From a virus (taxonomy: Duplodnaviria; Caudoviricetes): a DNA stretch of 64,000 nt. Each line of letters begins with the position of its first letter. Within the stretch, counting starts at the first letter, position 1. This document shows positions 32,031-60,808 of the stretch, piece after piece. Under the pieces are notes generated by a model, which was given only the letters and a program-made list of their open reading frames with translations, was not told the DNA's origin and did not search any database. Made by a program: the position numbers and the translations under genes. The stretch covers positions 20,620-84,619 of the IMG/VR virus record IMGVR_UViG_2883068021_000001; one strand, given 5' to 3'.

Positions 32031-32104
32031 GGATCGGTAGTTCAGTCGGTTAGAATGCCGCCCTGTCACGGCGGAGGTCGCGGGTTCGAGTCCCGTCCGG
32101 TCCG
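32031..32104 (+). tRNA. tRNA-Asp(GTC), CCA not encoded
   Basis: Complete cloverleaf: GGATCGG/CCGGTCC acceptor, CCGCC-CTGTCAC-GGCGG anticodon arm (GTC at 32065-67), GCGGG-TTCGAGT-CCCGT T-arm. Confidence 0.97.
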
Positions 32105-32207
32105 CACGATTTAGAAGAGACCCGCGCTAGGCGCGGGTTTTCTGTTTTTAGTCGAGTATTTGGTCGAGTTCCCTTTTGTTTTCAATGATCTTTACGGAGG
32201 TTAACAT
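32102..32207 (+). repeat. att-like repeat copy 1 (fused to the tRNA-Asp 3' end)
   Basis: ccgcacgatttagaagag, hairpin acccgcgc/gcgcgggt, T-tract, tandem (T/G)GTCGAG-type arm sites, extension to ggaggttaacat. Confidence 0.92.
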
Positions 32208-32482
32208 ACTTTAAGTTACGAAAAGTGACTTAAAAAGATGGGCGATTCAGTTTTCTCGTAAAAAAAACATGATCGCCCTCAATCGCAGCTTAATCAAAAA
32301 AATCTTGATTAAACGACTATTCGAAATTGGGAATTTAGTTCATGAGTATGCTTAGTTAATAGCCTTAATTATTTTGAGCATAGCAAGAAATTTACGCGAT
32401 AACACATAATGGAATTACTTATGTATATTTGAGTGTTAAGCGCATTTAAAACCGGTTATCCGACAAAATTGAACTTATACCC

Positions 32483-34033
32483 ATGACTAAAGTTTTAGAC
32501 CTCAATTATACAGAAGCAAGGCAATATTTTCTAAAGAGAGAAAGCTATATCAACTTTGATCTTCCTACTTATTTTGAATTTGGAAACCTATTGCAGGCTG
32601 TTTCAACACATATGCGAGGCCGGGAACTTAAAACTTTTCACTCTACTTATGTTGATGAAGATGGAGAAATTAAGCCTCATTTTCCAGCAAATTTTGAAGG
32701 AGTAAATTATAAGTTTCTTAATAACAAAGATGGGAAATTTGCATGGCGCCCTTTTCAATTGATTCATCCAGCCCTGTATGTTTCATTAGTTAATAAAATT
32801 ACTGAACAGGCAAACTGGAATCTAATTGTAGCTCGATTCAATCAATTTCAGGCAAATCCTCAAATCAGATGTTATAGCATTCCATTACGTTCAGATAATC
32901 AACAATCAGATAAAGCAACTACAATTAGTCAGTGGTGGCAAGCAATTGAACAGCAATCGTTGGAGCTGGCATTGAAGTTTGAATATGTTTTGCATACTGA
33001 TATTTCTGATTGTTATGGATCAATGTATACTCATTCTGTTCCATGGGCAATACATACAAAAGCAACCGCCAAGGACCGTAGAAAAGACAAAGGGTTGGTC
33101 GGCAATATTATCGATAGACACTTACAGAGTATGTCCTATGGGCAGACCAATGGAATTCCACAAGGGAGCGTATTGATGGATTTTATCGCTGAAATGGTTC
33201 TTGGTTTTGCCGATCTAGAACTGTCTACCAAAATTCAACAAGCAAACATTCAAGATTATGAAATAATAAGGTATCGAGATGATTATCGAATTTTTTCGAA
33301 CAATCCACAAACTGCTGAACATATTACCAAGTTACTGACGGAGATTTTGATTGAGCTTGGAATGCGTTTGAACGCACAGAAAACAATCGTATCAAATAAC
33401 GTCATAAAGAACTCAATAAAATCGGATAAATTATACTGGATTTCATCAAAGAAGGGTGCGAAAGGTATTCAAGAACATTTATTGATTATTCATAAGCTTT
33501 CGGAAGAACATCCAAATTCGGGCAGTTTATCGAAAGCATTAGGCAAATTCTATAACAGAATTAAAGATGTAACTGAAACTCATCAAAGCATAATTGTTTT
33601 AGTTAGCATTTTGGTAGACATAATGTATAAAAACCCAAGAGTTTATCCAATTGCTTCTGCGGTTCTAAGCAAACTCTTGTCGCTCGTTCCCGACCATAAA
33701 AAGAATGAAATACTAATTCTAATTCACAATAGATTCGAAAAGATACCCAATACAGGGCATATTAAAATTTGGCTTCAAAGGGTTACTATTAAACTTGATA
33801 GAGAAAAAGTATACTCTGAAAAACTTTGCGAAAAAATAAATAATCCTAGGTTGCAGATTTGGAATTCTGACTGGATAGAGAATAACTTAAGAACTGTTAT
33901 TGAAGCTACTGAAATTATAGATGAAGATGTAATCAATAACATAGATGTAGTCATTTCTAGTAAAGAAATTGAATTGTTTAAAACTGAATATGACTATGCT
34001 GAGCAGACTGAAGAAGTGGAGGTGACTTTGTAA
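32483..34033 (+). CDS. Abi-P2-like (UG/Abi) reverse transcriptase
   Basis: DGKFAWRPFQLIHP, TDISDCYGSMYTH, NGIPQGS, RYRDDYRIF, helical C-terminal domain; recalled similarity to Abi-P2 from the N-terminus onward. Confidence 0.85.
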   Translation: MTKVLDLNYTEARQYFLKRESYINFDLPTYFEFGNLLQAVSTHMRGRELKTFHSTYVDEDGEIKPHFPANFEGVNYKFLNNKDGKFAWRPFQLIHPALYVSLVNKITEQANWNLIVARFNQFQANPQIRCYSIPLRSDNQQSDKATTISQWWQAIEQQSLELALKFEYVLHTDISDCYGSMYTHSVPWAIHTKATAKDRRKDKGLVGNIIDRHLQSMSYGQTNGIPQGSVLMDFIAEMVLGFADLELSTKIQQANIQDYEIIRYRDDYRIFSNNPQTAEHITKLLTEILIELGMRLNAQKTIVSNNVIKNSIKSDKLYWISSKKGAKGIQEHLLIIHKLSEEHPNSGSLSKALGKFYNRIKDVTETHQSIIVLVSILVDIMYKNPRVYPIASAVLSKLLSLVPDHKKNEILILIHNRFEKIPNTGHIKIWLQRVTIKLDREKVYSEKLCEKINNPRLQIWNSDWIENNLRTVIEATEIIDEDVINNIDVVISSKEIELFKTEYDYAEQTEEVEVTL

Positions 34034-34189
34034 TTTTGGCGGATAGAATACTGATCAGCGTGCATTATAAATAAATGCAAGTATTAGTTTCAATTTTCTA
34101 TTGAAAATACAATAGAAACGCGATTTAAGGGCTTTGGGTAAAGGCGATTAATTGTTTTTTTAGTAATTTGATAGAAATCAAATTAAGAT

Positions 34190-34912
34190 ATGCAATTGTT
34201 TCCTTTTCATAGATTGAAATCATTCATCTTATTTGAACAGCCTTTTAATTTTCAATACTTGACCCTTCACTTCCGTCGAACCCATGAAAAGCATCAGGAG
34301 CATTTTGATAGCTGGCCGATAGCTGCGACGCGACGGAAATTAATCAACGACTTTTGGTTTTGGGCCTTGTGCCATTATGCAGCTTTGGTGGCCATTTGCG
34401 GAATAGTATTCCTGGGCGTACTGGCCACCTTTAATATATCTTATCTCTTGCTGGTACTAGTCGTAGGTATTTTACTTTACTTACCCTTATATGTTCTTTT
34501 ATATCGTCCAGCTTTTACCGGTGATTTTCTCCCGAAACTGGAAACTGTAATATCCGAGTTCGAAGGGAATCAGCGAATTTGGGCCGAAAAGTGCAAACAA
34601 GAGCAACTTTCCACGCGGGGGCTTGTATTGCTTTACTACATTTTGGATAAATGTGCTGAAATTAACTTTCTTACCCCAAGTGATAAATCTGCAAGCCTGC
34701 TGCTTAAAATCTTCGGTGTAAGCCAGAAGGGCCTAAAGAACGAACTCGATTTACTATTCAAGAAGGAAAAGCGGGCAAAGATTGAGCAAAGAAAGCAAAC
34801 CGAGATTACGAAGAGTTTCGAGGAAGTGTACGCTATTTTTGAGGAAATGCAGTTTCCAAAGGGTGTGCAAATGTTAAAAGAGCTGGAAATCCGATATAAT
34901 CGGCCCGAATAA
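34190..34912 (+). CDS. Hypothetical membrane protein of Bacteroidetes mobilizable elements
   Basis: Two TM segments followed by a helical domain; upstream of the xis-like gene. Confidence 0.65.
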   Translation: MQLFPFHRLKSFILFEQPFNFQYLTLHFRRTHEKHQEHFDSWPIAATRRKLINDFWFWALCHYAALVAICGIVFLGVLATFNISYLLLVLVVGILLYLPLYVLLYRPAFTGDFLPKLETVISEFEGNQRIWAEKCKQEQLSTRGLVLLYYILDKCAEINFLTPSDKSASLLLKIFGVSQKGLKNELDLLFKKEKRAKIEQRKQTEITKSFEEVYAIFEEMQFPKGVQMLKELEIRYNRPE

Positions 34913-35004
34913 CTGTCAATCCCGCCGTTTTAACTAAATACAAGTATACTTAACCCGATTCCGGGCCTCCCCAACCCCATATTTACAGCCTAAATCTGTA
35001 AACT

Positions 35005-35358
35005 ATGGAAAGTGCGAAGAATGAACTGCCCACCACTCCAATGCTGTTTCCTTTGGAGCCGGAGGTATTCTGGCAGAAGCTGCGTTTACTGGTGCGGGAG
35101 GAAGTCGGCCGATTGGAAGTGCAACCGGCGGCTGGTAGTTCCACGTTTGTTACACCCGGCCTCAACTACAAACCCCTGCTAAAGATTGCCGAGGTTTGCC
35201 AGCTTTTTCAAGTCACCCGCCCCACGATCTACGACTGGATTAAGTGCGGCAAGCTGAAACGTTATAAAGTTCGGTCGCGGGCTTACTTCCTCTGGAACGA
35301 TATCCAGCAATTGCTCTACCCGGACGGTTCGCCCGGCCAGTCGTCCCCCGTCATTTGA
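35005..35358 (+). CDS. HTH_17 excisionase-like protein
   Basis: LLKIAEVCQLFQVTRPTIYDWIKCGKL. Confidence 0.85.
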   Translation: MESAKNELPTTPMLFPLEPEVFWQKLRLLVREEVGRLEVQPAAGSSTFVTPGLNYKPLLKIAEVCQLFQVTRPTIYDWIKCGKLKRYKVRSRAYFLWNDIQQLLYPDGSPGQSSPVI

Positions 35359-35367
35359 TTTTGTATT

Positions 35368-35448
35368 AGCGAGCGGTGTTTTTGCTTCGCAAAAACTCGC
35401 TCGCTTTTGCTCCCGCTGGTCGCAAAAGGTTGCCCGCCAGCGGGCAAT
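35368..35448. other. Candidate oriT (nested inverted repeats)
   Basis: AGCGAGC..GTTTTTGC-ttc-GCAAAAAC..GCTCGCT and TTGCCCGC-ca-GCGGGCAA directly upstream of mobC. Confidence 0.45.
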
Positions 35449-35465
35449 CATTGAATTTTTGGCTT

Positions 35466-35810
35466 ATGTGTGCAAAGAAAGGTGGGCGACCTCCCAGCCC
35501 AAAGAAACGCCAGCACCAGGTCGGCATCAGGTTGAACACGGAAGAACTGGCCCAGCTAAAGGAGCAGGCGGCCAAGGCCGGGATAAAACTAATGCCCTTC
35601 ATGCGGGGAATTATCCTCCGGGGCAAGGTGATCGCGCGGCTGGATGAGGACGGCCGTCAGTACCGGCAAGCCCTCATTGGTATGGCGAACAACATTAACC
35701 AGATGGCAAAGGTCTGCAACGCTACCGGCTATATTGACGTCTGTAGGGGCTTCTATCATACCTATCAGGAGTTAGCCTCTATCCTTAAAAAGTTAAGTAG
35801 TGATAAGTAA
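35466..35810 (+). CDS. mobC: MobC relaxosome accessory protein
   Basis: GGRP...IRLNTEE...IGMANNINQMAK; likely start at ATG 35466. Confidence 0.8.
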   Translation: MCAKKGGRPPSPKKRQHQVGIRLNTEELAQLKEQAAKAGIKLMPFMRGIILRGKVIARLDEDGRQYRQALIGMANNINQMAKVCNATGYIDVCRGFYHTYQELASILKKLSSDK

Positions 35811-36570
35811 AGTAATTACCGGCAAATCCTTTGCGGGATGCTGCCGATACGTATGCAGGAAGGAAGACCATGTGAAGATCCTCCACGTCAATGGCGTTAG
35901 AGAAGCCAACCCCAAGGATATGGCTGCTGACTTTGAAGACAACCGCCGGAGGCTACCCAATAAGCACCGCGCCGTCTTTCATGGGATATTGAGTTTTCAC
36001 CCATCGGATAGGGTTACAGAATCCCGAATGACATTAATCGCTTGCCAATACCTTGACCGCCTTAAAATTACTGACACCCAGTTTACCATCGTTAAGCACT
36101 CCGACAAGGCCCATCAGCACCTGCATATAATAGCCAATCTGGTAAACATGAAGGGAATAGCGATTTCGGATAGCTGGCTAGGGCTTCGGGGGAAAAAGGT
36201 AGCCCAGGCACTTACTTTGGAACACGGACTGAAAATAGCCCAAGGGCGCACGCCGAAGCTAACGCCTCCGGCGCGTGGAAGTGAGGAAGCCGTAAAGGAG
36301 GAAATCTTCTCCACCATAGCCACCGCGCTGGTACTATGCAAGAGTTTCGCACATCTTGAAAATGTCCTCGCCCATTGCCGGATCGATATCATGTATAAGC
36401 GGAACGGAAAAGGAGAAGCGGCCGGAATTAGCTTCCGGAAGGGTAAGTATGCTTTCAAGGGAAGCGATATCCACCGGAATTTCTCATTTGCAGGCTTCCA
36501 GAAGCGATTTGGTGGGGAGCGGGTAGATGTGGTCCGGAGGGTGAAGAGGAGCCGTGGATTGGGCCTGTAG
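35800..36570 (+). CDS. Relaxase/mobilization nuclease (MOBP-type)
   Basis: MISKVITGKSFAGCCRY, FHGILSFHP, HSDKAHQHLHIIAN. Confidence 0.9.
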   Translation: MISKVITGKSFAGCCRYVCRKEDHVKILHVNGVREANPKDMAADFEDNRRRLPNKHRAVFHGILSFHPSDRVTESRMTLIACQYLDRLKITDTQFTIVKHSDKAHQHLHIIANLVNMKGIAISDSWLGLRGKKVAQALTLEHGLKIAQGRTPKLTPPARGSEEAVKEEIFSTIATALVLCKSFAHLENVLAHCRIDIMYKRNGKGEAAGISFRKGKYAFKGSDIHRNFSFAGFQKRFGGERVDVVRRVKRSRGLGL

Positions 36571-39909: not shown

Positions 39910-41172
39910 TTATTGAACAGATCCTGCCAATAGGATTTCTCCTCGTTGCTGCCAAATCTCCCTAATCTTACGCCCCGCTTCTTCAGGAGTGATCCGAATA
40001 TACCTGTAGAAATCCCGTAGGCTCTTATGCCCGCTAATCCGCATAATCAATTCAACCGGTGTACCCGCCAAAAACTCATTCGTGCAGAAAGACCGGCGGC
40101 AGGTATGGGAAGTCACCCAGCCCCATTTCGGGCGAACAGTCGCTATATCCCTATTCCCTTTCTTGTGGGTGAACCGTACCGGCTCCACGATCCCCGCCAA
40201 CTTCGCCACCTCCTTTATCAGCCGGTTAAACATCACATTACTGAAGACGGGAACGCCCTCCCGGAACCGTTCCAGAAAAATCTCTTCCGCCTGTTTCCGC
40301 AGAGGCACCACCACCCAATGATCCGACTTCTCCTGCTTTTTATGTAACATCCCTTTCCGAATGTCGCTACCCTTCAGGGAGGTGAAATCCGAGAACCGTA
40401 GCCCCGTTAGGCACCCCAAAACGAACAAATCCCGGCAGGGGGCCAGGTCTGGCCGGTCGGTCAAGTCCAGCCCGTAAATGTGCATGATCTCCACCGAGGT
40501 GAGATAAATAGCGTCTGCGTTCTCGTCCAGTATCTTGAAATCCGATAGGTCAATGGGAGGGATAATCTTCCGGCGCATCCGGTCGCGGAGGAACAGGCGG
40601 AGGTGTTTCACGGTTTTACCGATGGAAGCCAGCCGCAATCCCTTTGTAGGGATTTTCCGGCGGGGCTGGATGTATTCGTATGTCAGGAAGTCTACAAACC
40701 CCTCGTAAAAGGAATAGTCAAAGCTATCAAAGCTGATCGGGGATTCGCGGTAAGTCTCGTAGGCCAGTACATGCTCTTTCATGGTCTTGAATACGTTGAT
40801 CGTGGCCGGAGACACCTTCCCGGTCTTGCATTGGATGTAATGCTCGATCTGGAAATAAATATCGAGGTTGATACCCGGGTTGGTTGTCGCTGCCAACTCC
40901 GCCGCTTCAAACAGACCGGAAGGATCAAAGTCCGGGCGGAAGGTCTGTTTCAGGAATGCGCCTACATTCGGAATCTTCTCTTTCACCGCATAAGAAATAA
41001 TGTCCTCCACCATCCGCAGCAGGGAGGCCAGCCGTGCGCCCAGGTCAGCAGCCCCACCATACCGGGCAGGGAGATCAGGCATTACCCGGAGGAATTTACG
41101 GTTCCAGAATTTGGGAGGGATGGCGATTTCCGTATTCAGCAGCACTTTTTTGTTGTCCGCGCCGCAATACTG
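39910..41172 (-). pseudogene. Tyrosine integrase lacking its first ~24 codons and promoter
   Basis: Catalytic TGLRFSD, SHTCRRSF, SGHKS...YI intact; homology to 59714-59927 continues to QYCG at 41172, then breaks into unrelated AT-rich DNA. Confidence 0.8.
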
Positions 41173-42620
41173 TAACTAATAATGTTTCATTTAATACGGT
41201 CGGCTTTATAAATAATGTAAGTGAAACTGATTATGAAAAGTTTATTAAGTTAAAAAAAGATAACCATTTGCAGTTATCTGAATATACAAACGTTTGGAAA
41301 GTTTTACTGTACTTAATAATATCTCATAGAATAAAGGAACAAGAAAGTGCTAAAGGCTTTTTTAAGTCTTCTGACAAATTCAATGCGATACAGAACGCAA
41401 TCGACGAATACTATCTTAACGCTTTTTCTCCAGAAATTGTACATGCATTAAACTTTGTGGAAAAGACAAAATTCTCTGCCGAAGTGCTGCATAAGTATTT
41501 CAAATTGTTGGGTGAAAATCTAAAAGAAGGAAGTTTTACACATTCAAAATTTCAAACTAATCTACTATATATTCAGAATCATTTCGAAAAAGCAATTGCC
41601 AGCTTAACTTTAAATTCAAATTATACTTTTTTCATAGATGGGATAGATGTTAGACCTGATTCAGTTTCGTACGAGTATTACATAGAGTGTATTAAAGGAC
41701 TCGCACAGGCTACGTGGTCAGTTAACAATGAATTTTTTCCATCTATTAAAGGGGAAGGACGATTAAAAGTAGTTCTTCTAATTCGCCCAGATATTTTTGC
41801 TAATCTTGGCTTGCAAAATCAAAACAATAAGATTAAGGACAACTCTATTCTACTTGATTGGAGAACTAATTACTCCGAATATAGAAATTCAAAACTTTTT
41901 ATACTCGCAGATAGACTGCTTTTAGCCCAACAGGACGAAAATAGTAAGGTTGGCGATTGTTGGAATCACTATTTTCCTTATCAACCGTTTATTGCTAACA
42001 AGCGAGAGTCGTCCTTTATACAATTTCTAAGATATTCTCTCTATCGTCCAAGAGATATAGTCACAATGCTTGACTTTCTTAAGGATATACATGTTAGGAA
42101 CCAAAAGAATGACCCAAGTACGTTCTCTCATCATGATTTTGATAATGGAGAGTTTCAAACACGATATTCGGATTACTTACTTGGAGAAATTAAAGATTAT
42201 CTAGCGTTCTATTTCTCAGAAACTGACTATGAATCATTTAGGAAATTTTTTGACTTTTTGAAAGGGAAAAGTACATTTGGTTATATGGATTTTACAAGGG
42301 CTTATTGTGAGATGATGGAATATTTCGAAAAGACGAATATCAATAAACCTAAATTTTTTGATACTGCAGATACATTTTTACAGTTCCTTTTTGATTTGAA
42401 TGTAATTTGCTACATTGAAGGCCAAGGAAGAAATACTTTTATCAGATGGTGCTTTAGAGAGCGCAACTATGCCAATCTATCCCCCAAGGTTAAAACTGGA
42501 GTAAAGTATGAAATACATTATGGCTTATTAAAAGCATTGAATTTCGGCAAAAGAAGTTTTGGGGGTAACAAAAATTCATTTCATGCTGGAGCATCAGTCA
42601 ATAAATATAGATTCAAATAG
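41173..42620 (+). pseudogene. P-loop ATPase (FunZ-like), 5'-truncated, Walker A lost
   Basis: ETDYEKFIKLK, FFIDGID (Walker B), RPRDIV; no start codon of its own, and the track ORF's first ~46 aa are integrase antisense sequence. Confidence 0.65.
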
Positions 42621-43039
42621 ATTACAATAAACTTCAGACTAGAAACTCAATCGTAATATTATTAATAAACATATGTTTTAAGTGCTCATGTCCGACATTT
42701 TATATTAAGATACTTTGACGTCAATCAAGCAAGTGTCAATCAAAACGGAACGACGTGAAAGGTAGAATTGATTGACATTTTACTTTCGCCATCCATAATG
42801 ATATGCGGTAGTATTTTCTTCATTATATTGCTTATTATTGAATTTGTTGGTTTGTGTTTGTCATTGCTTTCCAATGATATGGAAGTACGAACTCATTCAA
42901 TCAATAGGATTATTCAAATCCTTCACTGAATAGTATTTCAATCGGCCAATGATATACTGCTAATTGGGATGGGTACATTAGATCGGTTCTAGGTGAAGGT
43001 TGTAATTCATCGCGCCATTATTGGATGTTGGCATAAAAA

Positions 43040-43532: not shown

Positions 43533-43538
43533 AAATAA

Positions 43539-51300: not shown

Positions 51301-51793
51301 TAACGCGCCCGCTGGACAATTACCTACAGCCCTGAATGCTGCCGTATTTGCCGCAGATACCCGTTACAAAACCCGCATATTATTTAATAGCTACGACCCA
51401 GATGGGAATCCAACAGAAAAACAAAAGGTGAACGATGTTAAGGAAGTATACTTATGGGGGTACAACGGCGTTTACCCGGTTGCCAAAGTAGTAGGAAGCG
51501 ATGTTGCTACAGTGTCCGCCCTGATCAATCAAACCATGCTGGATAATGCACATACCTATTCGGATGCGCAGATCCGGACCGAGTTAAATAAGATTCGTAC
51601 CGGGCTCGCCAGTAACAGCCAAGTAAGCGTGTCGACCTATACTTATGCGCCATTAATAGGGATGACGAGCCAGACAGACGCCAACAATGTTACCACTTAC
51701 TACGAATATGATACCTTTGGAAGATTGATTTTGGTGCGTGATCAAAACAGTAAGATCCTTAAGAAGTTTGAATATCGTTATGCCGGACAGTGA
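48368..51793 (+). CDS. YD/RHS-repeat secreted protein (partner of DUF6443 RHS proteins)
   Basis: Signal peptide; PPAPNAA, GLYTGTPQISVP, GLGWNLNAGG, C-terminal YTYAPLIGMTSQTD...YEYDTFGRL. Confidence 0.88.
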   Translation: MIIVNAMFRKVLTCLAIIWANLSLAQEKTIIPPAPNAANLVFNTETQMGLYTGTPQISVPIWTVNAGVMQVPITLSYTSGGVKVADMASWCGLGWNLNAGGVITRSVVGMPDETPTFGYIDYTIPPSTPYNPDFISMAEGTIDSQQDLFFYSLPGGSGRFVFDAAGTPKSIPKSNYKITKGNIAIFQFSDGNASCISDWQIIDDKGIIYRFKDYEKTLSASRNNELTGSGFTTNGRSINSWYLTEMESPTGERIVFNYTSVDLAYDLAPTKTSILQLEGQDDNYPSSTSVPRQYVNTKRLSSIDFPEGKIRFIPTTLGRADLVGDNALDKIIVEDKQGNIKRQFKLDYKYLVGNSLVDYTSINPAGTNNFFVSSTITPNVSFSRRLMLMKSTEQDANGVALNNGQRFDYHTEYGLPHRASPLVDHWGYSNKADNPSAELPFVLIEPSQTGSPNPVVYVGGKSPDFLYAKQGSLYKVNHASGGFTEYEFESNDAAPSPNIPPKVTKTNEIYSISLSHYKYNVDGWYEGLNYEIRPDGNGNMVRNYYIEFAVYHGSTGTAQVLLTDIPYYPASGLNFYIMNVSTGSVIWRGYNDGTYNVTLQPGAYRLYHCPSYALLNSPQNPDHQKLHSATLSGFYTITSEQGSQGQPPKVGGIRVRKSKQYDSVSQKTLYKEYKYEQDGSSGQLLAAPIYQFEFTVEARTGSLDRHLGISYNSVNPLSTTHNSFVGYRYVEEKAVSEAGVPLGKTSYSYLGPLESPDVLYKGNASADGFTFYEAPNPPADRRDWLRGFLTQQMDYKYDNVTQIYTQVRKVENTYKKTLEPVSNGLQVNITNRNLVNGQHLVSFTYYSHHSGTIFLEKTEETLYQGNGEQKTTTTIENSGKSYLPVSKSIAQSDGSVSKEYYTYPKEYLTGNAAIDNLISKNIVSVPLETVKLKEYPTGTFSITEGSLTNYYPAGWGNIQSVSVLETNIPIPVSAFKFSNAPAGQLPTALNAAVFAADTRYKTRILFNSYDPDGNPTEKQKVNDVKEVYLWGYNGVYPVAKVVGSDVATVSALINQTMLDNAHTYSDAQIRTELNKIRTGLASNSQVSVSTYTYAPLIGMTSQTDANNVTTYYEYDTFGRLILVRDQNSKILKKFEYRYAGQ

Positions 51794-51823
51794 GGAATAT
51801 TGCTCTTTTGTTGCCAGCTAAAG

Positions 51824-51946
51824 GTTCGATAATTGTCCCTCCCAGCCCGCACGATTTAGAAGAGACCCGCGCTTGGCGCGGGTTTTCTGTTTTTAGTCGA
51901 GTATTAAGTCGAGTTCTCTTTTTTCAATGAACTTTATGGAGGTTAA
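51824..51946 (+). repeat. att-like repeat copy 3
   Basis: gttcgataattgtccctcccagcccgcacgatttagaagagacccgcgcttggcgcgggttttctgtttttagtcgagtattaagtcgag...ggaggttaa. Confidence 0.92.
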
Positions 51947-52036
51947 TGTTCTATAATTGGGGGGTACTCGAATATCCTGCATTATTAAAGAATCCGAATG
52001 TACAGGCATAATTTTCACTTTTAAAATCCAGTACAA

Positions 52037-52315: not shown

Positions 52316-52438
52316 AGTGTCACCAAAAGTTAGATGAGTTATGATTAAGATAACTACGTTTGGTCCGCAGAAGGGATCGGAAAAGGTGGTGTACCTATAC
52401 AGGACTTGCGCATTTTAGCTTTAGTCAATCTGGCCTGC

Positions 52439-52570
52439 AAAGTTCGATAATCGTCCCTCCCAGCCCGCACAATTTAGAAGAGACCCGCGCTAGGCACGGG
52501 TTTTCTGTTTTTAGTCGAGTATTTAGTCGAGTTCCCTTTTGTTTTCAATGATCTTTACGGAGGTTAACAT
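52439..52570 (+). repeat. att-like repeat copy 4
   Basis: Nearly identical to copy 1 over 32102-32207, plus upstream aagttcgataatcgtccctcccagc. Confidence 0.95.
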
Positions 52571-52752
52571 CTTTAATTTACACAAATGATATCTCTATTC
52601 CTTCGATGACGAAAATAAAAACACATTGCAAAGTCATCCTCACTTTTAGCGTTGTTGATATTTAATAAAATTAACCTATATTGTGACGCATAAAGTTTTG
52701 ACCACGTATTGAAATTCCATCCCATCAACCCCTAAATTAAATACTACCCTCG

Positions 52753-53786
52753 ATGGATGAATTAGTCAAAGAAATTGACAGTTGGATCGATCAAATTCCA
52801 AGTGTTGCATCTGATGTTGAGTACTGGCTTATTAGAACACAATCAGGCAAGTATTACGATTCTTTTAAAGAGCATAATTTCATAGCGATAGAACACGAGG
52901 AAATTTCACTCGGGTTACTTCATACGTTGAAAACAATCCACGGTGAAGATACTACTTCGTTTTTTGAAGCCCTAAAAGCAAAGGTAATTGAGTTATATCC
53001 AGATGATAGGTCTCCCGGACTAACTACTAACCAAATAATTAGGTTCGTTTACAAATTGAAAACAAATGATGTAATTATCATTCCGTCGGAAAATTCGAAG
53101 TACCTCACATTTGGAGTGGTGACATCAAATACAATTCCGGAGTTGTCTGAACACCAACTTAATATTACGGGATGCCCGTATAGAAAGAGAAAAAAAGTAA
53201 AGTGGAATAAAACTATCAAACGAAGTGATTTAGATCCTTATCTCTTTAAGATGCTACAGTCTCATCAGGCAATTAGCAACATTAATAACTACGCGGAATT
53301 AATACAACGAAACCTCAGGGACTTTTATCTATTAAATGATGAGATAAATCTGGTGTTGGATGTAAATCCAATGATGAAATCCAAGCAACAGATTTATTTG
53401 GATTTGGTCATAGTCTTTTAACTCTAGTTGATAAATACGCAAAGGCAAATGACATTCTTGTTGATTTATCGTCCGTCCAGGTTAAAACATACTTAAATTC
53501 GCCGGGGAAAGTTAACTTAAAGTCTTATTGTAAACGAACACTGACTATCTCTGCAGTACTTCTTTTTTTGTGTGGGGGCGGTTATGAGAATGGGACGGTT
53601 AAGCTTAAAACTGATGGACTTCCGGGCCTAATAAAGAGCATTTCCGATTTTTTGAACGAGCAGCATGATCGGGAAAAGCAAGACTTAGTTTTGAAGAAAA
53701 CAATGGATTCACTAGAGATTTCAGATTCAAAGGATTTTATTAATGTTATGAAACAAGTTTCTACGAATAAAGATTTGCCTAAGTGA
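52753..53786 (+). pseudogene. EVE/PUA-like N-terminal domain plus membrane-associated C-terminus, split by a 1-nt frameshift
   Basis: YWLIRTQSGKYY...DVIIIPS...RKKVKW; after ~53370 the other frame is open (NDEIQATDLFGFG...LNSPG...GGGYENG...GLIKSI) to the stop at 53786; total 1034 nt = 3n-1. Confidence 0.75.
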
Positions 53787-53809
53787 TATTTTTTTAGTAA
53801 ATTTTATTT

Positions 53810-54034
53810 ATGAAAGATTTGCTCAATTCCATATCGGTATTAGCAACCTTCGTAACCACTACTATGGTATGCTATTATTTGTTCTTGCTTACGGCTGGAC
53901 AAATCAAATCAATACCGAAATCATTTAAACTTTATAAAACGATAGAAACCAAATATCTGTTTTTAGCCATTTCATTTATTATAGTTTTCTTTTTAGTATA
54001 CTTAAGGTTTTTGAATTTTTATAAACCGTGGTAA
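53810..54034 (+). CDS. 74-aa two-TM protein
   Basis: Two hydrophobic helices; 23 bp after the previous gene. Confidence 0.6.
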   Translation: MKDLLNSISVLATFVTTTMVCYYLFLLTAGQIKSIPKSFKLYKTIETKYLFLAISFIIVFFLVYLRFLNFYKPW

Positions 54035-54060
54035 TAAAATAATATCATTATTTTATTCGG

Positions 54061-54790
54061 CTAGTATTGTACCGGCCCAAAACTGATACCGTAAAAGACG
54101 CGATTCAATACAGCTCGGTTTATACAACGTACATGGAGCTTGCCATCTTTAATAGGTCTTCCAAATATTGCCATATTTTGAATTATGTGGCCTTGAGCTC
54201 TATCTTTAAATTCACCGAGCTTTCTTGTTGAAATTCCCAAAACAGTTTCAAAGGGCATTGCTCCCGTCCTTACTAAACTGAAATAAGAGGGGTAAATAAT
54301 TCCGTCATAGCCTGCAGATTTTGCAACTTTGGCAATATCTCTTGATATTTTATAGGAATGTTTGGCTGCTAAAAACAGAAAATGAATAGCTAAATCTAGG
54401 CTTTCAAATTCTGTTCCATCTTCGGATAGTATTTCGGTCAGATCAAGAAAACATAAGTCCTTAGAGGCCTCAATTGTAGCCATGTATATTTCAACTTCTA
54501 CTGAAACTCTACATTCATGAATACATACCTCGGCATCTTGAGAGCCGTACAAAACGGGAAAGTTAGCAGAATCTAATCGACCATGGCCCAAGAATCTATC
54601 TGGTGGAGAATCATACTGTTCTGGTTGATGAGGGTCTTGAGGATTCACTCGGATTCTATAAAATGATTCGCCGCATGTAAACTTCCTGGAAGGATAGCTA
54701 GATATTATTTTATCAATTGATGACTTCCTTTTTGTAGGTTTTATTAATTCTTTAAGAGTGTCTTTAAAAAGTTCAAGTTTAATCTTTATC
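54061..54790 (-). pseudogene. RES-domain protein, 5'-truncated
   Basis: FYRIRVNP...GRLDSANFPVLYGS...CIHECR...YDGIIYPS; frame open to ~54790, then TAG with no ATG. Confidence 0.65.
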
Positions 54791-55690
54791 TTTTTTTCCT
54801 TTAACTATTTTCCAAATAGTTGTCGAAACTTTAGGCTTTTCAACCTCATCAAATTCAATTTTTCTTTCCATTACATTATTGGGTTTGGTGGTAGGGCTAA
54901 TAAGCATACTTTCAACCTCATTCATTCTTACCCACTTCCTGAATTTTCGCTGTAATTCTAGGATTTCAGCTAACTCATAGTCAGAAGTCTCGACATCAAA
55001 GAGATTTACATAGACTGTCTCGTCACATAGCAAATCAATATGTATAGCATCCGGAAAACTCAGCAGCAACTTTCTATCAAAGTAAGGTTGACTTAACGGC
55101 CCAAACCACATCTCCGGCGCTGCCATAAGATCCATTGATAATACAATTGCTTCGTGACCAGGGTTTTCTGTTATATCAATCATGGGTCCATATACCTGAG
55201 CCAATTGGGAAGTTTGTTCTAACTTAAGATGCTGGTAAGGTCTGCCATGGGCAATGTAGTTCTTAATGAATTTCTCATTCTGCCATTTAATTTTAGAACT
55301 GTCAGTTACAAATGCAAAGGTAAATGGCACTTGGAAGACATCTAGTAATGATTGAGCGTTAGGTTTTACATCCTCAGGATATCGGAATGTAAGAATCTTC
55401 ACTTTATTACTTTTATCCCAATTAAATGAAAAAGAATGTGTGGTTGATACTTCTTCAAACGGATCAATTCCCTCTCCTTCTTCCAACCAAAACTTATTTT
55501 CATCGACACTATTCATTGTTTCTATATATTCGTCGATTTTTTTCTTGTTAAATCGTGTATATGAAGGAGCGAATAAAGGACTGAGCATTCTAACTGGTTG
55601 AAATGGCAGGTGCTTAAGCACCAACTTAAGCACTTCACCACTTTGCGGCAGTTGCTCTTCTGGAAATGATATCGTAAAGCGTAAACTCAT
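54779..55690 (-). CDS. Putative immunity protein (intact) for the dead RHS toxin
   Basis: 303-aa open ORF starting 10 bp after the toxin-tip stop. Confidence 0.65.
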   Translation of the reverse strand: MSLRFTISFPEEQLPQSGEVLKLVLKHLPFQPVRMLSPLFAPSYTRFNKKKIDEYIETMNSVDENKFWLEEGEGIDPFEEVSTTHSFSFNWDKSNKVKILTFRYPEDVKPNAQSLLDVFQVPFTFAFVTDSSKIKWQNEKFIKNYIAHGRPYQHLKLEQTSQLAQVYGPMIDITENPGHEAIVLSMDLMAAPEMWFGPLSQPYFDRKLLLSFPDAIHIDLLCDETVYVNLFDVETSDYELAEILELQRKFRKWVRMNEVESMLISPTTKPNNVMERKIEFDEVEKPKVSTTIWKIVKGKKDKD

Positions 55691-55700
55691 AGTTTAAAAA

Positions 55701-57443
55701 CTATAGATGGTCAATTATTACATGTATTCCTAACTTTTCAGCCAGACTTTCAACCTGTTTGACGTTAATTGGTAAGTGTCCTGGCGGGAACACCAAATGT
55801 AGCACTTTCGTTTCATAAGGTAAAGCTGCCATTTCCTGAATGTTTTTCGCAATGCTCAACTTTGCTGCTGCCGAAGTTTTCATGCTAACAACCATGTTTA
55901 TTTCAGGACTTAAAAAGTCAAAAGTCTTGTTGTTTTTTGGGAGTGGAATGTAACCCTTTGAAGGCAGATAAACAGTGCGGGTATACAGATTTTCTATCTC
56001 TAAACCTGATTGCTTGCTTAGGGCCTAATGGCCAGTAAGGATGGTTTTGCAAACGAGCCATGTTTTCGTTGTAAGTGAATGACTTATAAATGCTTGGGAT
56101 GGGCTGTTATTCTTCCATTATAAGGCTTCCATCAAGAAAACTTCGACCCGCCCCCATAGCAATAAAACCGTTGGCTGTACCTTGTATCAAGCCTCCAGTC
56201 AATAACGACATACTTGCTGATTGACCGCCCTGCATTAATGCATCACCAAAATCCATATCATGGAAAGCTATTGCATTACCGGTAGTTTCGATTAAAGATC
56301 CCATTCCAGATCCAATCCCTCCGGCAACGAATCCCTGTGTAAATCCACCTGCGCCAGATATTGCAGATGAAGCCGCCGTTGAACTTACTGCGCCGCTCCA
56401 AAAACCAGTACCCATCATTGCTCCAGACACCGCCCCTGCAGTCATAGTTGTTACCGCGCCGGCAGCAAACCCAATCCCAAAAGCAACAGCAAAATCACCC
56501 GGCCCCTTAATGTTGCCGTTGATGGCTTGCATTACTACGTTAATGCCACCGCCAATAAGTCCGCCAATTATTATATGCCAAACTTTACCGTCAGGATCCC
56601 GTCCAACAATCCAATGGTTGCCCATTCTGGTATAACCACTAAAGAACTGCCATGCTGGATCTACGCTTATGAATCGGCCTGTTTGCGGATCATAAAATCT
56701 TGCTTCAAAGTTATACAACGTAACATCAAGTTCCTCATCCAGCTCCTTTCCTTGATAGAGTTTTTCATTTGGCGCTCGCAGCATCTGCCTGCTACTCAGC
56801 GAGGCAATTTCTAATCCCGTAGGGTAAAGGGTGCTTTCTTGAAGTAACGGCCCCGCTTGGAGCACTACTGCACGTCATCGAACCATACATCTGTTTGCGT
56901 TTCGTTACTTGTATAAACATATAGATAGCCACTTTTTTCGATGTCCATATGCCCGATATATTCCGATAGTTGATCAGCGGGACCATTTATGCGCTTAACT
57001 GCTCCATTAACAAAATTCAAATTTTCATCAAAAAGTACATAGTTTAAATATGCTTTGGGCGCAGCGGACGCTGTATTGTTGTTATTCTGATTATCTGAAA
57101 TGAATTTAGATAAATCAGTGGCGTTAAGGATAGTATTATTGTTTGTAATTAGATTCCCCTTACCAATGTTGATAATATTTGTACTTCCTCCTAAATATGC
57201 ATAAAGGAGACTGTTCAGAATTTCCTGAACCGGAGCCTGCCCTTGAGGCATAGGACCCGCCTTGTAGTAAGCTTTAGTTTTCAGATCGACGACGTCCCCT
57301 GCCATAACTTTTAAAACCAGCGACGCCCCAATCTTTTTATTTGGATCACTGGCATTTAATTTTGACCAGAATTTGTTTGTAGTTGAGTTATACCAAGGAA
57401 GATTGGTCGGAACCACCTCTTTGGTAGATTCAATAGTACCGGC
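55701..57443 (-). pseudogene. RHS toxin 3' fragment with nuclease-like tip, multiply inactivated
   Basis: RHS core (YNFEARFYDPQTGRF...DPDG); 1-nt frameshift at ~56867, in-frame TAA at 56107-09, TTGC duplication at 56010-17; 5' part absent. Confidence 0.8.
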
Positions 57444-58648
57444 TCACCGGCGTGCAGCGCTATCTCGAAAACCTGGTGGAGAATTTCCCCGGCACGAAAG
57501 ACAAACATATTTGCATCATTAATTTTGACGCACCGGGATATGCGGAGGTGACGGTCCGCCAGCACCAGCGCATCACCTATTATTTCATCCCGGAGCAGCG
57601 GGCGGCGAAATACAGCGATGCCTACTGGCGAATGCTGGCGCCAGTTTGCCGGGAAATCTTACTGCAGCTGGGGCCGACGATGCTGCATATCAACCATTAC
57701 GCGTTCCTGGAGTTCGGTCTGCAACTGAAAAAGGCGATGGGTTGCAAGGTGCTGTATACGTACCATTTCTTCAACTGGTTTGGCTATTTTCGGGGGAATT
57801 ACGCACTTTTTCAGGCGTTGCAGGCGCGGAAGTATTCCAGAGAGGAACTGTCTGCTATGGAAATCTTCAAAAAATGCGGGGCGCTTTATCGGGAGCTGGA
57901 CGGCCTCATTTCGATCTGCAACCACGGCCGGCAAGACCTCGCGCATACATACGGTGTTGATGGTCGGCAGATCCGGACCATTTACAACGGGCTCAGGTTC
58001 GATCCCGGGCCGGCAAGACACAACCGGAAAAAGCTGTTCCGGCAAAAACTGGGATTGCCACCGGGCGACCGTATCGTATTATATTCAGGAAGGATCAATG
58101 AAGACAAGGGGATTATGCACCTGATCGACGCTATACGGACCGCCTACCAGCAAATGGGTAACGTGCGGCTGGTAGTGGCCGGTTTCGACAGGCTGGGCAT
58201 ATTGGACAGTTACCTTTCCGAGCCGTGGATGACCTATATCGGCGAACAGAAGAAACCTGGCCTGTTCGATTGGTACCAGGCGGCCGATGTGGGCGTTATC
58301 CCGTCTTTGTACGACCAGTGCAATTTCGTGGCGATAGAAATGATGATGTACCGGTTGCCGATCGTGGCTTCCGGCATCCCCGGGCTTCGGGAGGCGTTTC
58401 ACAATAAGAGGACGGGTCTGCTCGTTAATATAGACTTTCATGAAAACAATTACGAACTCGACCCATCGAAACTGGCGGCTGCCATCATCCGTCTGCTTAC
58501 CGACCCGAAGCTCGCCGGCAGGATGGCACGTAACGCCTACCGGGAATACAGAAAGCGATTTACCGGAAAGCGGATGGCAGCGGAAACCCTTCGACTGTAC
58601 GATCAATTAATGTCAAAACCCGGTACATGCGTTTTACCCTCCTCATAG
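57437..58648 (+). CDS. GT4 glycosyltransferase (TIGR04157-like), probably N-terminally clipped
   Basis: LTGVQRY directly after an in-frame TAG (57434-36); YSGRINEDKG, PSLYDQCNFVAIE; GC-rich. Confidence 0.75.
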   Translation, partial: YRLTGVQRYLENLVENFPGTKDKHICIINFDAPGYAEVTVRQHQRITYYFIPEQRAAKYSDAYWRMLAPVCREILLQLGPTMLHINHYAFLEFGLQLKKAMGCKVLYTYHFFNWFGYFRGNYALFQALQARKYSREELSAMEIFKKCGALYRELDGLISICNHGRQDLAHTYGVDGRQIRTIYNGLRFDPGPARHNRKKLFRQKLGLPPGDRIVLYSGRINEDKGIMHLIDAIRTAYQQMGNVRLVVAGFDRLGILDSYLSEPWMTYIGEQKKPGLFDWYQAADVGVIPSLYDQCNFVAIEMMMYRLPIVASGIPGLREAFHNKRTGLLVNIDFHENNYELDPSKLAAAIIRLLTDPKLAGRMARNAYREYRKRFTGKRMAAETLRLYDQLMSKPGTCVLPSS

Positions 58649-59691
58649 CTTTGGCGATCCCGGCCTGCATTTCCGCATCTGGTCAGAACCTGGTCGTCAA
58701 CGGCAATTTAGAATCCGTCAATATCTGCGAGGTTCAATCTCCGTGCGCGCCAGCCGGCTGGTATACTTCCTTCGATATCGACTGGGCTTATCAACGTATA
58801 AAACATTTGAGCCGGGGCAACGGCGCGCATTGCATTTTCCTGTATGCCGGACCAGATAAGTTCGTTTACTGGCAGAGCGAGCTGATCTTCCCGCTCGAAG
58901 CCGGCCAGACCTACACGCTCGAATATTACGTCGGCCTCAGCGACGCCGGGTCTTCCGTAAACGACATCTCTTTCGCCTTCGCCGGTCAGCGGGAACATAT
59001 GCTGGGCACCGGCCCGCGGACGCTCCGGCCGCCAGCCGCCGCGAAGATGACCGTGGGCAGGCGGGAGAAAGGTGGGTGGACGAAAATATCTGTCCGCTTC
59101 GAAGCCGCCGGCAACGAGCGCTGGCTCATACTGGGGGCGCCTGGTAAGGGGGAGGCGGCTCCCGTAGCGTCTAACCCCATCTTTGCGGTAGACGATGTAT
59201 CGCTCACGCCTGCCGGCAAAATCAGGCTGACGCCCGAAGAATTGCAGACGAGGGCGCGTGCGCTCACATCGAACCGGTTGCGGCACGAGTTGCGGCCGCG
59301 GAAAAATGCTCCTGCAGACACGCCCGTCATAGCCGCCGCACCGCCGCCAGATACGATCCGCATCCCCGACATTTACTTCTCCACAGACAGCTTCCGGATC
59401 GAAAAGCCCGGCGACTTCCAGGTGTTGCGGGAAACGGCGGCGCGTATCGTCGCAAAAGGGTACAAGGCCGTGATCGTAAACGGTTACGCGGACATTACAG
59501 GCTCTCAACAGCACAACCTCGTTCTGTCCGGCAAAAGGGCCGCATCCATCCGGGAATACCTCATACAGTGCGGCATCGATCAGCAGAAGATCTCCGCCGC
59601 AGCCATGGGCGCCGACACGGCTGCCGCCGCGGAACTGAGCAAAGGCAGGCGGGTCGATATCGTGGTGGTGCCCTTGGCAGACGGTGATTAA
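58627..59691 (+). CDS. OmpA-family protein with N-terminal carbohydrate-binding-like domain
   Basis: Signal peptide; NLVVNGNLE; GYADITGSQQHNLVLSGKRA...GRRVDI. Confidence 0.85.
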   Translation: MRFTLLIALAIPACISASGQNLVVNGNLESVNICEVQSPCAPAGWYTSFDIDWAYQRIKHLSRGNGAHCIFLYAGPDKFVYWQSELIFPLEAGQTYTLEYYVGLSDAGSSVNDISFAFAGQREHMLGTGPRTLRPPAAAKMTVGRREKGGWTKISVRFEAAGNERWLILGAPGKGEAAPVASNPIFAVDDVSLTPAGKIRLTPEELQTRARALTSNRLRHELRPRKNAPADTPVIAAAPPPDTIRIPDIYFSTDSFRIEKPGDFQVLRETAARIVAKGYKAVIVNGYADITGSQQHNLVLSGKRAASIREYLIQCGIDQQKISAAAMGADTAAAAELSKGRRVDIVVVPLADGD

Positions 59692-59713
59692 CGCCTCTGG
59701 CCGGAACATTTTA

Positions 59714-59999
59714 CGCCTACATCCGGAATCTTCTCTTTCACCGCATAAGAAATAATGTCCTCCTCCATTCGCAGCATAGAGGTCAGCCGTCCGCCCAATT
59801 CAGCGGCTCTGCCATACCGGGCCGGTAGATCGGGCATTACCCGGAGGAATTTCCGGTTCTAGCATATGGGAGGGATGGCGATTTTCGTATTCAGCAGCAA
59901 CTTTTTGTTGTCGGCGCCACAATACTGGACGAAGACCAGCCCCGTGCCATCCCGACGTACCTTGTTCTTTGGGCAAATCGGTTTGATTGGTAACAACAT
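59714..59999 (-). pseudogene. Tyrosine integrase 5' remnant
   Basis: MLLPIKPICPKNKVRRDGTGLVFVQYCGADNKKLLLNTKIAIPPIC* (TAG where the 41-kb copy has TGG); 59714-59927 is homologous to 40959-41172. Confidence 0.85.
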
Positions 60000-60152
60000 A
60001 GTTTAGTCGATTTTTTAGTCGAGTTCAATGTTGTCAACCTCAATAGAGGTACTACGTAAGAAATGAGATCGGTGTTGTAGAATGTTGAAAATCAACACTG
60101 TTAAAATGGCTTATGTAAGCCCGTGCATACTTCGATTTAATACCCGTGGGTT

Positions 60153-60165
60153 CGTCCAGTCCGCA
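60153..60165 (+). other. Degenerate tRNA-Asp 3' core (attR-like)
   Basis: CGTCCAGTCCGCA vs tRNA end CGTCCGGTCCGCA (12/13); TAGTCGA arm repeats at ~60004-60024. Confidence 0.6.
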
Positions 60166-60717
60166 AAAGGTAAAAAAGTGTCGTTTTTAACCACTTTTTA
60201 CTTCTTTCTTAATAGCTCTCTTTATCAATAATTTAGCTCTTGTTAGATAGGTATTGCTCCTGTGAAAAACCGACTACCCTCATAAAATTCTGCCTGAAGT
60301 GATGGACCTATCGCACTCGATTATGACGCGAGAAAACAGGCCCCGTGAATTTTCTACGTATAAGTTTCGGAATTTGGAAGAATATTATGCCCATATGGAT
60401 AAGCTAGGGCTGGGCAGCAAATTCACCACCATCAAATTGCTGATATCAACCACACCTCCAGACTGCTTCGAAATGAAAGTAGAAGGTGTGTTTATGTCCC
60501 AGGCTTGCTAGGAAGGTTATGAGCGTTCAGGACTGATCGGCCTAGAGAAAAATAAACGAGAAATCGAATGGGTAGAATAGCTCGCAGCATGATAAACGTG
60601 ATTTTAGATTAAAGAGACCGCCACAATCTGGTCTCCTTGACTATCTGAAGGATGGAAATGTATAAACGATTGATACAGAAGTATATGGTCTATTCTTTTA
60701 TTTGAATTCAAACTCAA

Positions 60718-60808
60718 AAGTTCGATAATCGTCCCTCCCAGCCCGCACGATTTAGAAGAGACCCGCGCTTGTCGCGGGTTTTCTGTTTGTAGTCGGGTAT
60801 TTAGTCAA
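60718..60808 (+). repeat. att-like repeat copy 5
   Basis: aagttcgataatcgtccctcccagcccgcacgatttagaagagacccgcgcttgtcgcgggttttctgtttgtagtcgggtatttagtcaa. Confidence 0.92.

Follow-up and report, generated by a model that had tools for sequence, protein, structure and literature searches.

Joints in a tRNA-Asp island of Chitinophaga as a probable record of alternating insertions by tyrosine-integrase and large serine recombinase elements

Tandem accretion of integrative conjugative elements (ICEs) and of integrative mobilizable elements (IMEs), together with decayed cis-mobilizable elements (CIMEs), is known from streptococci (Pavlovic 2004, Bellanger 2011, as reviewed in PMC5704250). As the accretion is presented in that review, insertions follow one another at one target end, older elements lose their genes for integration and transfer while keeping their att sites, and composites result. 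A comparable row of units is found behind a tRNA-Asp gene in the stretch of DNA analysed here, which comprises 64,000 nucleotides (positions 20,620 to 84,619 of IMG/VR virus record IMGVR_UViG_2883068021_000001; hereafter the window) and belongs to a genome of the genus Chitinophaga (G000; G and L numbers denote the genomes and loci compared). This region is probably a decayed palimpsest of successive insertions at one tRNA-Asp end by two unrelated element families, and not a working cassette system. Contrary to the streptococcal case, two recombinase superfamilies, tyrosine and serine, would alternate here at the same nucleotides, giving chimeric joints between a serine half-site and a tyrosine arm, and cis-mobilization is not implied. 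As in CIMEs, three of the units (2, 3 and 4) are bounded by att-derived joints, and none of them has an intact recombinase or relaxase. Their decay from autonomous elements is reflected in an integrase stump, a truncated integrase, the stump of a large serine recombinase (LSR) gene on another contig of the genome (C22), and intact counterparts in relatives.

Two other island types are close in outline. The staphylococcal cassette chromosome (SCC), pseudo-SCC and arginine catabolic mobile element islands at rlmH (orfX), moved by the Ccr LSRs, also form a serine-driven stack, in which some units are recombinase-free and short direct repeats set the units apart at one gene's 3' end (PMC7029136). 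Here, however, the target is a tRNA and not a protein gene, a single LSR runs with its open reading frame (ORF) into this tRNA, and tyrosine-integrase IMEs alternate with the units. In the tycheposon islands of Prochlorococcus (bioRxiv 10.1101/2020.12.28.424599), repeated tRNA integration likewise moves older elements inward and leaves partial tRNAs and integrase fragments scattered; those islands depend on tyrosine recombinases and true partial-tRNA repeats, whereas half of the repeats here would be serine-integrase half-sites. This locus is set apart, as far as its sequence can be read, by two superfamilies that are interleaved at the same nucleotides, with a chimeric repeat and an LSR family devoted to tRNA 3' ends. 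What looks like a single att repeat would in this way become a readable insertion record of two enzyme families.

A sequence-only reading of the window had described five repeats at the tRNA-Asp, each with a core, a hairpin with T-tract and paired boxes, and this description was confirmed. The 18-nt core is present in five exact copies (32102, 43066, 51847, 52465 and 60743; 0 expected by chance), at core-to-core spacings of 10964, 8781, 618 and 8278 bp, and the whole module measures about 150 bp. The part to the right of the core, here named Y, begins in 5/5 copies with a 13-nt spacer, which is followed by a GC hairpin and its T-tract and then by two 8-bp boxes (the TAGTCGAG pair). The part to the left, X, is a pseudo-tRNA 3' end of about 30 nt and is found in copies 2-5, as the same reading had noticed in speaking of a remodelled tRNA end; both parts are seen in the alignment and by a repeat finder. 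Hairpin energies of copies 1-5 are -18.4, -8.5, -18.4, -13.0 and -15.2 kcal/mol, and copy 2 is therefore considered decayed. A sixth box pair adjoins an integrase N-terminal remnant at about 60.0 kb, where the sequence-only reading had already placed it. A repeat profile over the 6.19-Mb genome retrieves 7 copies, five in the window and two on contig C22, all of them at tRNA-Asp loci, which rules out a scatter of the kind known from repetitive extragenic palindromic elements. The repeats are thus att-derived and delimit units stacked at the tRNA-Asp, as had been proposed.

The idea of a single att-like repeat did not survive, however. The module appears instead to be a chimera in which half-sites of two unrelated recombination systems meet, with X coming from an LSR element and Y from a tyrosine-integrase IME. 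In the notation used here, X' and Y are the ends of the IME, X and P' those of the LSR element, P' being a conserved arm after the tRNA, and a slash marks a joint. According to the junction catalogue, every joint directly follows the last tRNA-Asp bases (...CCGCA), and all six combinations of left part (tRNA, X or X') and right part (Y or P') are present in the genus, a grammar by which tRNA-linked defence and competition islands can be dissected. The tRNA-Asp of the window reads as the attB common to both element kinds. The tRNA, joints and boxes are as follows.

32031-32105, plus strand: tRNA-Asp(GTC), called by ARAGORN, the sole tRNA found in the window.
32106..32214, plus strand: joint 1, tRNA/Y (32106), with spacer, hairpin of -18.4 kcal/mol, TAGTCGAG-type pair at 32150-32170 and conserved tail.
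43038..43150, plus strand: joint 2, X/Y (43070), with X at 43038-43070, degenerate boxes, a decayed hairpin, and Y cut off after about 80 nt.
51820..51956, plus strand: joint 3, X/Y (51851), with X at 51820-51851.
52357..52390, plus strand: relic inner joint X'/P' in unit 3 (52369), a tRNA-like end (GGTCCGCA) up to 52369, then the start of the LSR-side arm.
52438..52574, plus strand: joint 4, X/Y (52469), with X at 52438-52469.
60002..60034, plus strand: P-arm box pair, 4 nt upstream of the start codon of the integrase remnant.
60143..60165, plus strand: X', the IME's own right end (60165), a copy of the tRNA-Asp 3' end with a 7-nt gap.
60716..60820, plus strand: joint 5, X/Y' (60747), with X at 60716-60747, the hairpin kept and the boxes degenerate.

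Textbook phage serine integrases avoid tRNA 3' ends as targets. The mycobacteriophage enzymes, for instance, have been reported not to use them (PMC9262239). The best studied members (A118/LI, Bxb1, phiC31) combine a Resolvase and a Recombinase domain and act on a dyad-symmetric attP of about 50 bp, while in attB the distal ZD motif lies 5 bp nearer the centre, at 11-19 instead of 16-24 (PMC3783163). The LSRs related to this locus share these domains and this site layout, but they target tRNA 3' ends and belong to small cargo islands rather than phages. The link to the locus comes from another tRNA-Asp of the genome, at C22:620920, which has a different flank, P', found after tRNA-Asp in many species. 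This flank was ruled out as a native attB, being the 3' coding end of an LSR gene. In five genomes (G081, G069, G025, G017 and G079) an ORF of 547-556 aa with both domains runs antisense across the flank and ends inside the tRNA. The LSR proteins of relatives measure 547-562 aa (PF00239, Resolvase; PF07508, Recombinase), and the 3' end of the gene overlaps a tRNA antisense in 12 of 14 related loci (tRNA-Asp, tRNA-Ser with GGA, CGA or TGA anticodon, or tRNA-Pro), always with the same conserved P' after the tRNA; no tRNA was seen at the remaining 2.

Complete elements of this kind connect P' with X. In the strain YR627 a tRNA-Ser(GGA)/P' joint is followed by the LSR gene, 4.8 kb of further DNA, X, and the native tRNA-Ser flank. 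In NPDC101104, tRNA-Asp/P' is followed by a frameshifted LSR gene, 8.9 kb, and an X/Y joint of the type seen in the window, and in G017 a complete element of 11.3 kb has the LSR as its only recombinase. Because such elements carry X, including the one at tRNA-Ser in YR627, X is regarded as element-borne and not target-derived, and it is the same whether the target is tRNA-Asp or tRNA-Ser. When the attP is rebuilt as X + P' from six elements, it forms an inverted repeat round a central CC; in 5/5 tRNA-Asp elements, GTCCC/GGGAC occupies positions 8-12 to either side of it. X corresponds to the tRNA end with the TTCGA motif 5 nt further out: the TTCGA half-site of the tRNA gives 6-7/7 matches to X with a 5-nt shift, as opposed to 1-2/7 unshifted. 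This shift appears to be the published attP/attB distinction of serine integrases (PMC3783163), and X reads best as the element-borne attP half-site of an LSR. The motif shared by copies 2-5, which had been taken to go beyond simple stacking, would be this half-site.

The resemblance of X to a tRNA 3' end, a feature of tyrosine-element attP cores, and the existence of tandem IMEs, such as those meeting at an X'/Y joint in G006, would also suit a scheme in which all units are remnants of one tyrosine-integrase family and X is the diverged left arm of a second IME subfamily. This scheme is very unlikely, given that in G017, G081 and YR627 the complete P'...X elements have a gene for an LSR but none for a tyrosine integrase, that every integrase-bearing element ends in X' and not in X, and that X and P' form an inverted repeat with the 5-nt shift, X being unchanged at tRNA-Ser.

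No intact cognate LSR is encoded in the genome analysed. Only a stump of about 110 aa is left, directly at the tRNA-Asp of C22; it shares 82% identity with residues 451-562 of the 562-aa LSRs that are intact in NPDC101104 and C. deserti. Three further serine recombinases encoded in the genome were discarded as cognate enzymes, being 23-26% identical and located away from tRNAs. Should the assignment of X and P' hold, natural attP/attB pairs would be defined for a family of serine integrases whose targets are the 3' ends of tRNAs (Asp, Ser, Pro), and such compact, sequence-defined pairs could interest collectors of serine integrases as tools.

Some further features of the LSR family were observed in relatives. 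LSRs 94-96% identical over residues 1-532 are found at tRNA-Asp in L075 (G081) and L079 (G069), and at tRNA-Ser(GGA) in L097 (SMAGNO18) and L098 (YR627). These two tRNAs have the TTCGA, TCCC and terminal motifs in common. One LSR type seems to use two tRNA targets, with the last 15-25 codons or so changing with the target. At L081, around 16582-16842 (G067), an LSR element is apparently reduced to about 130 bp between X'/P' and the next X, and the loss appears to have occurred by deletion between TTCGA-containing words in the LSR coding end and in X. In G081, a 10-kb unit without recombinase lies between two X sites (L075:6866-16821); its left end is unlike Y or P', and its cargo is a bacteriocin-type export set (C39-peptidase ABC transporter, HlyD, VKOR/thioredoxin proteins).

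The second partner of the chimera may be compared with NBU1 and NBU2. These mobilizable transposons of Bacteroides combine a Bacteroidota tyrosine integrase with a relaxase and integrate at tRNA 3' ends. To judge by these traits, the Chitinophaga family would be set apart through its putative box-pair arm sites and its tRNA-Asp and tRNA-Lys targets. Unit 1 of the array has the components of an IME, namely a tyrosine integrase, a relaxase, an accessory Mob protein and no conjugation apparatus, although the copy in the window is defective; att sites sharing the tRNA 3' end are seen in the IMEs of G067 and G006. Integrases 93-96% identical to that of unit 1 occur in G067, G118 and G006 (440-447 aa; full-length members of the family measure 440-455 aa), and a sister clade with 62-65% identity is found in many other Chitinophaga genomes. 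G067 has an entire IME, running from tRNA-Asp/Y through homologues of the unit 1 genes to the integrase gene, and left ends of the joint 1 type adjoin tRNA-Asp in the intact IMEs of both G067 and G006. Joint 1 accordingly reads as carrying the left end of the newest IME.

Upstream of the integrase gene, 10/11 relatives have one fixed layout, in which 4 nt separate the start codon from a pair of the same boxes (8 bp each, 12 bp apart), and about 145 nt, X' and the flank come next. In the IMEs of G067, G118 and G006, X' is a perfect 17-18-nt copy of the tRNA-Asp end. The sister clade (L022-L024, L028-L031, L042, L088-L095) targets tRNA-Lys(TTT), and there X' copies the tRNA-Lys end, the left end at the tRNA has a hairpin and the same box pair, and the pair recurs upstream of the integrase gene. 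At the integrase locus L094, a different 9-nt word stands twice at the box position, pointing to co-variation. Since the boxes occupy both arms at fixed distances and co-vary with the element, they are candidate arm-type sites, presumably bound by the N-domain of the integrase; the match of Arm-DNA-bind_5 to the G067 integrase is weak (E 0.011, residues 8-51). Their position just upstream of the gene would allow autoregulation too.

In G064, three tRNA-Asp loci on one contig (L115-L117) have identical spacer and hairpin and three different 8-nt box words, a pattern which suggests a long common core with element-specific arm sites. The spacer and hairpin of Y may be a copy of the native tRNA terminator retained in this common core, and this offers the simplest account of what had been described as a built-in insulating terminator. 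The identity of spacer and hairpin at several loci of one genome, the more than 200 bp of identity shared by three loci, and the presence of one unit at different loci in G000 and G028 could even indicate that Y is simply the native tRNA-Asp flank, and that segmental duplication or homologous exchange among the three tRNA-Asp loci gave rise to the array, with no repeated IME insertions. Such an origin is hardly probable at all. The tRNA-Asp flanks of G001 and G007 have other terminators and no boxes, so that the boxes must be considered element-borne; together with the variation of the boxes by locus in G064, this rules out a wholly native Y as far as the boxes are concerned. The boxes also recur upstream of the integrase gene at a fixed distance, at tRNA-Lys as well, the unit interiors are mutually unrelated, and integrase remains lie within units 1 and 4.

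From these two families, a scheme of alternating accretion and decay can be proposed. The first family would be an IME of about 8-11 kb that encodes a relaxase, a MobC-type protein, an HTH_17 protein and, at the right end, a tyrosine integrase of Bacteroidota type. In its attP, X' would lie on the left and the spacer, the tRNA-terminator copy and the box pair (Y) on the right, with a second pair about 145 nt left of the core, just upstream of the integrase gene. The second would be a small cargo island run by an LSR, with the recombinase gene at the left end, antisense into the tRNA, and an attP made of X + P'. Each new element would insert at the tRNA and displace the older ones downstream, an IME giving tRNA/Y ... 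X'/(old flank) and an LSR element giving tRNA/P' ... X/(old flank). Where an IME already occupies the tRNA, an incoming LSR element would then create an X/Y joint (the LSR attR); where an LSR element occupies it, an incoming IME would create an X'/P' joint (the IME right end). The latter would be flanked by the integrase gene on its left and the LSR gene on its right, and a single deletion could leave a recombinase-free Y...X unit. The frequency of Y...X units would be explained because a deletion at X'/P' removes both recombinase genes.

Two relic joints in the window show the X'/P' type. The 14-mer spanning the one at 52369 is unique in the window (0.01 expected), and the 0.6-kb unit 3 would therefore consist of an IME stump and an LSR-element stump of about 100 bp. 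At 60165, X' is followed by a degenerate LSR-side arm, and homology to the right ends of the G006 and G067 IMEs ends there; this X' lies 110 nt beyond the box pair at 60002-60034. Unit 4 would accordingly be an IME remnant followed by a 0.55-kb LSR-element stump, and unit 1 an IME fused at about 41180 to a foreign piece ending in X, which reads as the rest of an LSR-type element since it ends in X. In total, at least 5 IME-type and at least 4 LSR-type insertions are recorded, with no cognate recombinase intact, and it is from the joints that we infer the order of events.

It is possible, if somewhat doubtful, that the alternation also works as a ratchet. An LSR could not reuse a tRNA occupied by its own left end (attL), whereas an IME landing there would add an attB-like right half and re-open the site; alternation would build long arrays, and every X-ending unit could leave in cis with an LSR element upstream. 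If true, two enzyme superfamilies would be running a natural platform for gene capture at a single tRNA nucleotide.

Several points weigh against the scheme of two alternating families. The whole case rests on sequence comparison, and no recombination was observed. The right part of unit 1, unit 2 and a 6.1-kb unit shared with G028 contain neither a relic inner joint nor an LSR fragment, and for these three Y...X units we infer a composite origin from the layout alone. The spacer and hairpin of Y may be native flank, as they are identical at the three G064 loci while the boxes differ. The right half of the proposed attB is only weakly symmetric, and the central dinucleotide was assigned from symmetry. 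Finally, X/P' joints are found in 8 genomes, and a strictly unidirectional LSR should not make them directly; they could have arisen by excision of an IME from between two LSR elements, or by homologous exchange.

The joint types were counted over 103 Chitinophaga genomes, with a reversed-pattern control that gave 0 matches.

tRNA/P': 62 sites in 42 genomes.
tRNA/Y-hairpin: 53 sites in 32 genomes.
X/Y: 18 sites in 12 genomes, with more in this genome (4, strict pattern) than in any other.
X/P': 10 sites in 8 genomes.

The rarity of X/P' (10 sites as compared to 62 of tRNA/P') fits the directionality of serine integrases.

The genes between the joints of the window are listed next, from the tRNA outwards.

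32483..34033, plus strand: AbiP2-type defence reverse transcriptase, cargo of the IME (Pfam RVT_1; PADLOC AbiP2, E 1.5e-209).
35005..36570, plus strand: HTH_17 protein (candidate excisionase), MobC/NikA-like accessory protein and MobA/VirD2-type relaxase (Pfam).
39910..41175, minus strand: tyrosine integrase of unit 1, catalytic and SAM-like domains intact, 5'-truncated.
41181..43037, plus strand: 1.9-kb foreign piece with an ORF of about 456-528 aa, no family match, ending in X.
43125..51793, both strands: cargo of unit 2, with a 135-aa ORF (minus), a DUF6443/RHS protein of 1434 aa (minus) and a divergent RHS/SpvB-like protein of 1141 aa (plus) (Pfam).
52753..59691: cargo of unit 4, with a 222-aa ORF, a 303-aa ORF, a GT4 glycosyltransferase and an OmpA-domain protein (Pfam).
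54061-54648, minus strand: RES-domain toxin of unit 4 (Pfam).
56107-57416, minus strand: broken RHS C-terminal pieces of unit 4 (tblastn of the RHS protein).
59640..59999, minus strand: integrase remnant of unit 4, with the true start codon, residues 1 to about 95, and in-frame stops.
60166..60715, plus strand: LSR-type element stump of 0.55 kb, with 94% identity to the G028 unit's right end over its last 199 bp, X included.

Besides the IME core genes, for which the IMEs of G006 and G067 have 84-95% matches, unit 1 (32.1-43.0 kb) holds an Xre/MbcA-type antitoxin-like ORF and further ORFs that were not named; Pfam finds no type IV secretion genes in it. Its integrase aligns with the relatives only from residue 24, the first 23 residues being missing, and nucleotide homology ends at about 41180, some 35 nt past a GTG start. 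The gene is left without its true start codon, promoter, upstream box pair and X' (its own right end), and apart from this copy and the stump in unit 4 the genome has no integrase homologue of this family. Unit 3 contributes a 92-aa ORF without family match. The sequence-only reading had assigned toxin/immunity-type cargo to units 2 and 3, and the assignment holds for unit 2, where two RHS-type proteins are encoded, but has no support in the case of the 92-aa ORF; that both units are free of integrase and mob genes is borne out by their gene content. PADLOC and Pfam, run on the unnamed cargo, gave a name only to the AbiP2 reverse transcriptase. For the interior of unit 3, the 0.55-kb stump and the foreign piece with the 528-aa ORF, no homologues beyond the joints were found in the compared loci or elsewhere in this genome. 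For the biology of Chitinophaga, the array illustrates how RHS toxins, an AbiP2 reverse transcriptase and toxin-antitoxin modules end up immobilised beside a tRNA.

With joint 5 begins an older unit, which has DUF3892, HSDR_N-domain and DUF4407 genes and continues past the end of the window. The five joints that had been reported stand as such, but the count of joints was incomplete, the relic joints at 52369 and 60165 having been left out and the array running about 14 kb past the window. The variable region extends to some 14.4 kb past the window, after which 95% synteny with G028 resumes, and no att-like sequence is present at the conserved right boundary of the island in either G000 or G028.

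The array on C22 (C22:620920-640760; L050, L051) begins with the tRNA-Asp and the LSR stump, followed by a 147-aa ORF, an RHS protein of 1517 aa (minus), an RHS-like protein of 1171 aa (plus), an X/Y joint, and the 6.1-kb unit. It ends with a copy that shares 80% identity with the 1141-aa protein from unit 2, and no right-side att relic is visible in it. Unit 2 has the same gene layout as the LSR-stump unit of this array (tblastn match at C22:622644-630305), with a truncated Y in place of the stump. At the orthologous tRNA-Asp of G028, tRNA/Y is followed by a 6.1-kb unit and then by X/P'. This unit holds a LytS/LytTR pair, a cytochrome c, a GNAT protein and further unnamed ORFs, without any recombinase, and is 96% identical to the DNA after the X/Y joint of C22, that is, at a different tRNA-Asp locus. 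Content and position of units hence differ between related genomes, as had been expected of the array. Such shifts between species are explained by independent insertion at three identical tRNA genes, or by exchange between arrays, without an integron-like mechanism.

An integron- or CIME-like platform still in use, in which one att-like repeat defines non-autonomous cassettes captured, excised and reshuffled by a resident or incoming integrase, was the proposal originally made for this locus. It can draw on the recombinase-free units between conserved joints in several genomes, including G028, where arrays occupy all three tRNA-Asp loci and no homologue of the unit 1 integrase exists, on the occurrence of one unit at different loci in two species, and on the fact that any X-ending unit could in principle leave with an LSR element upstream. 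The platform is nonetheless unlikely. A circle formed from a Y...X unit would carry X/Y, which is neither the attP of the IME (no left arm boxes, no X') nor that of the LSR (no P'). The genome lacks an intact cognate enzyme: the integrase that was to do the shuffling is 5'-truncated, and the LSR is absent. The supposed cassettes look instead like eroded composites, with relic joints in units 3 and 4, recombinase stumps inside units (an integrase stump in unit 4), a unit 2 laid out like the LSR-stump unit of C22, and copy 2 of the repeat decaying. Relatives carry full autonomous elements with the same ends, for both element kinds, and the sequence-only reading had itself named such a finding as one that would refute it.

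The likeness to integrons lies in a row of units separated by recombination-site repeats, but no IntI, attI, Pc or attC features are present, and most units are multi-gene, bidirectional and 8-11 kb long. In place of IntI, attI and Pc at the head of the array, there is a Bacteroidota-type integrase (Phage_int_SAM_5 and an arm-binding N-domain) which is truncated and sits inside unit 1, 8 kb from the head. Single-ORF cassettes with attC are not seen either: genes occur in both orientations, the repeats are direct copies of X and Y, and no inverted repeat is present apart from a terminator-type hairpin. Decayed accretion by two recombinase families remains the preferred reading of the array.

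Some minor features surround the arrays. On C22, another tRNA-Asp (C22:532144-535012; L049) has a tRNA/Y joint with only about 2.8 kb before G028 synteny resumes, and no right-end relic was found there. Next to the tRNA-Asp of the window, a 304-aa protein with a tRNA-synt_1c catalytic domain (31053-31967, minus strand) corresponds in size and type to a glutamyl-Q tRNA(Asp) synthetase, and possibly forms a functional neighbourhood with its substrate tRNA. Further upstream, a 3' fragment of tRNA-Ser(GGA) at 15399-15426 of the window (and G000:C12:441800-441887) is followed by the native tRNA-Ser flank, and the full tRNA-Ser lies about 38 kb upstream of this fragment. Compared to G028, there is about 52 kb of extra DNA between tRNA-Ser and window position 29990 or so, and the first half of the window would therefore represent one or two further islands. 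A distant tyrosine-integrase-like match, with 21% identity, starts at about 15831.

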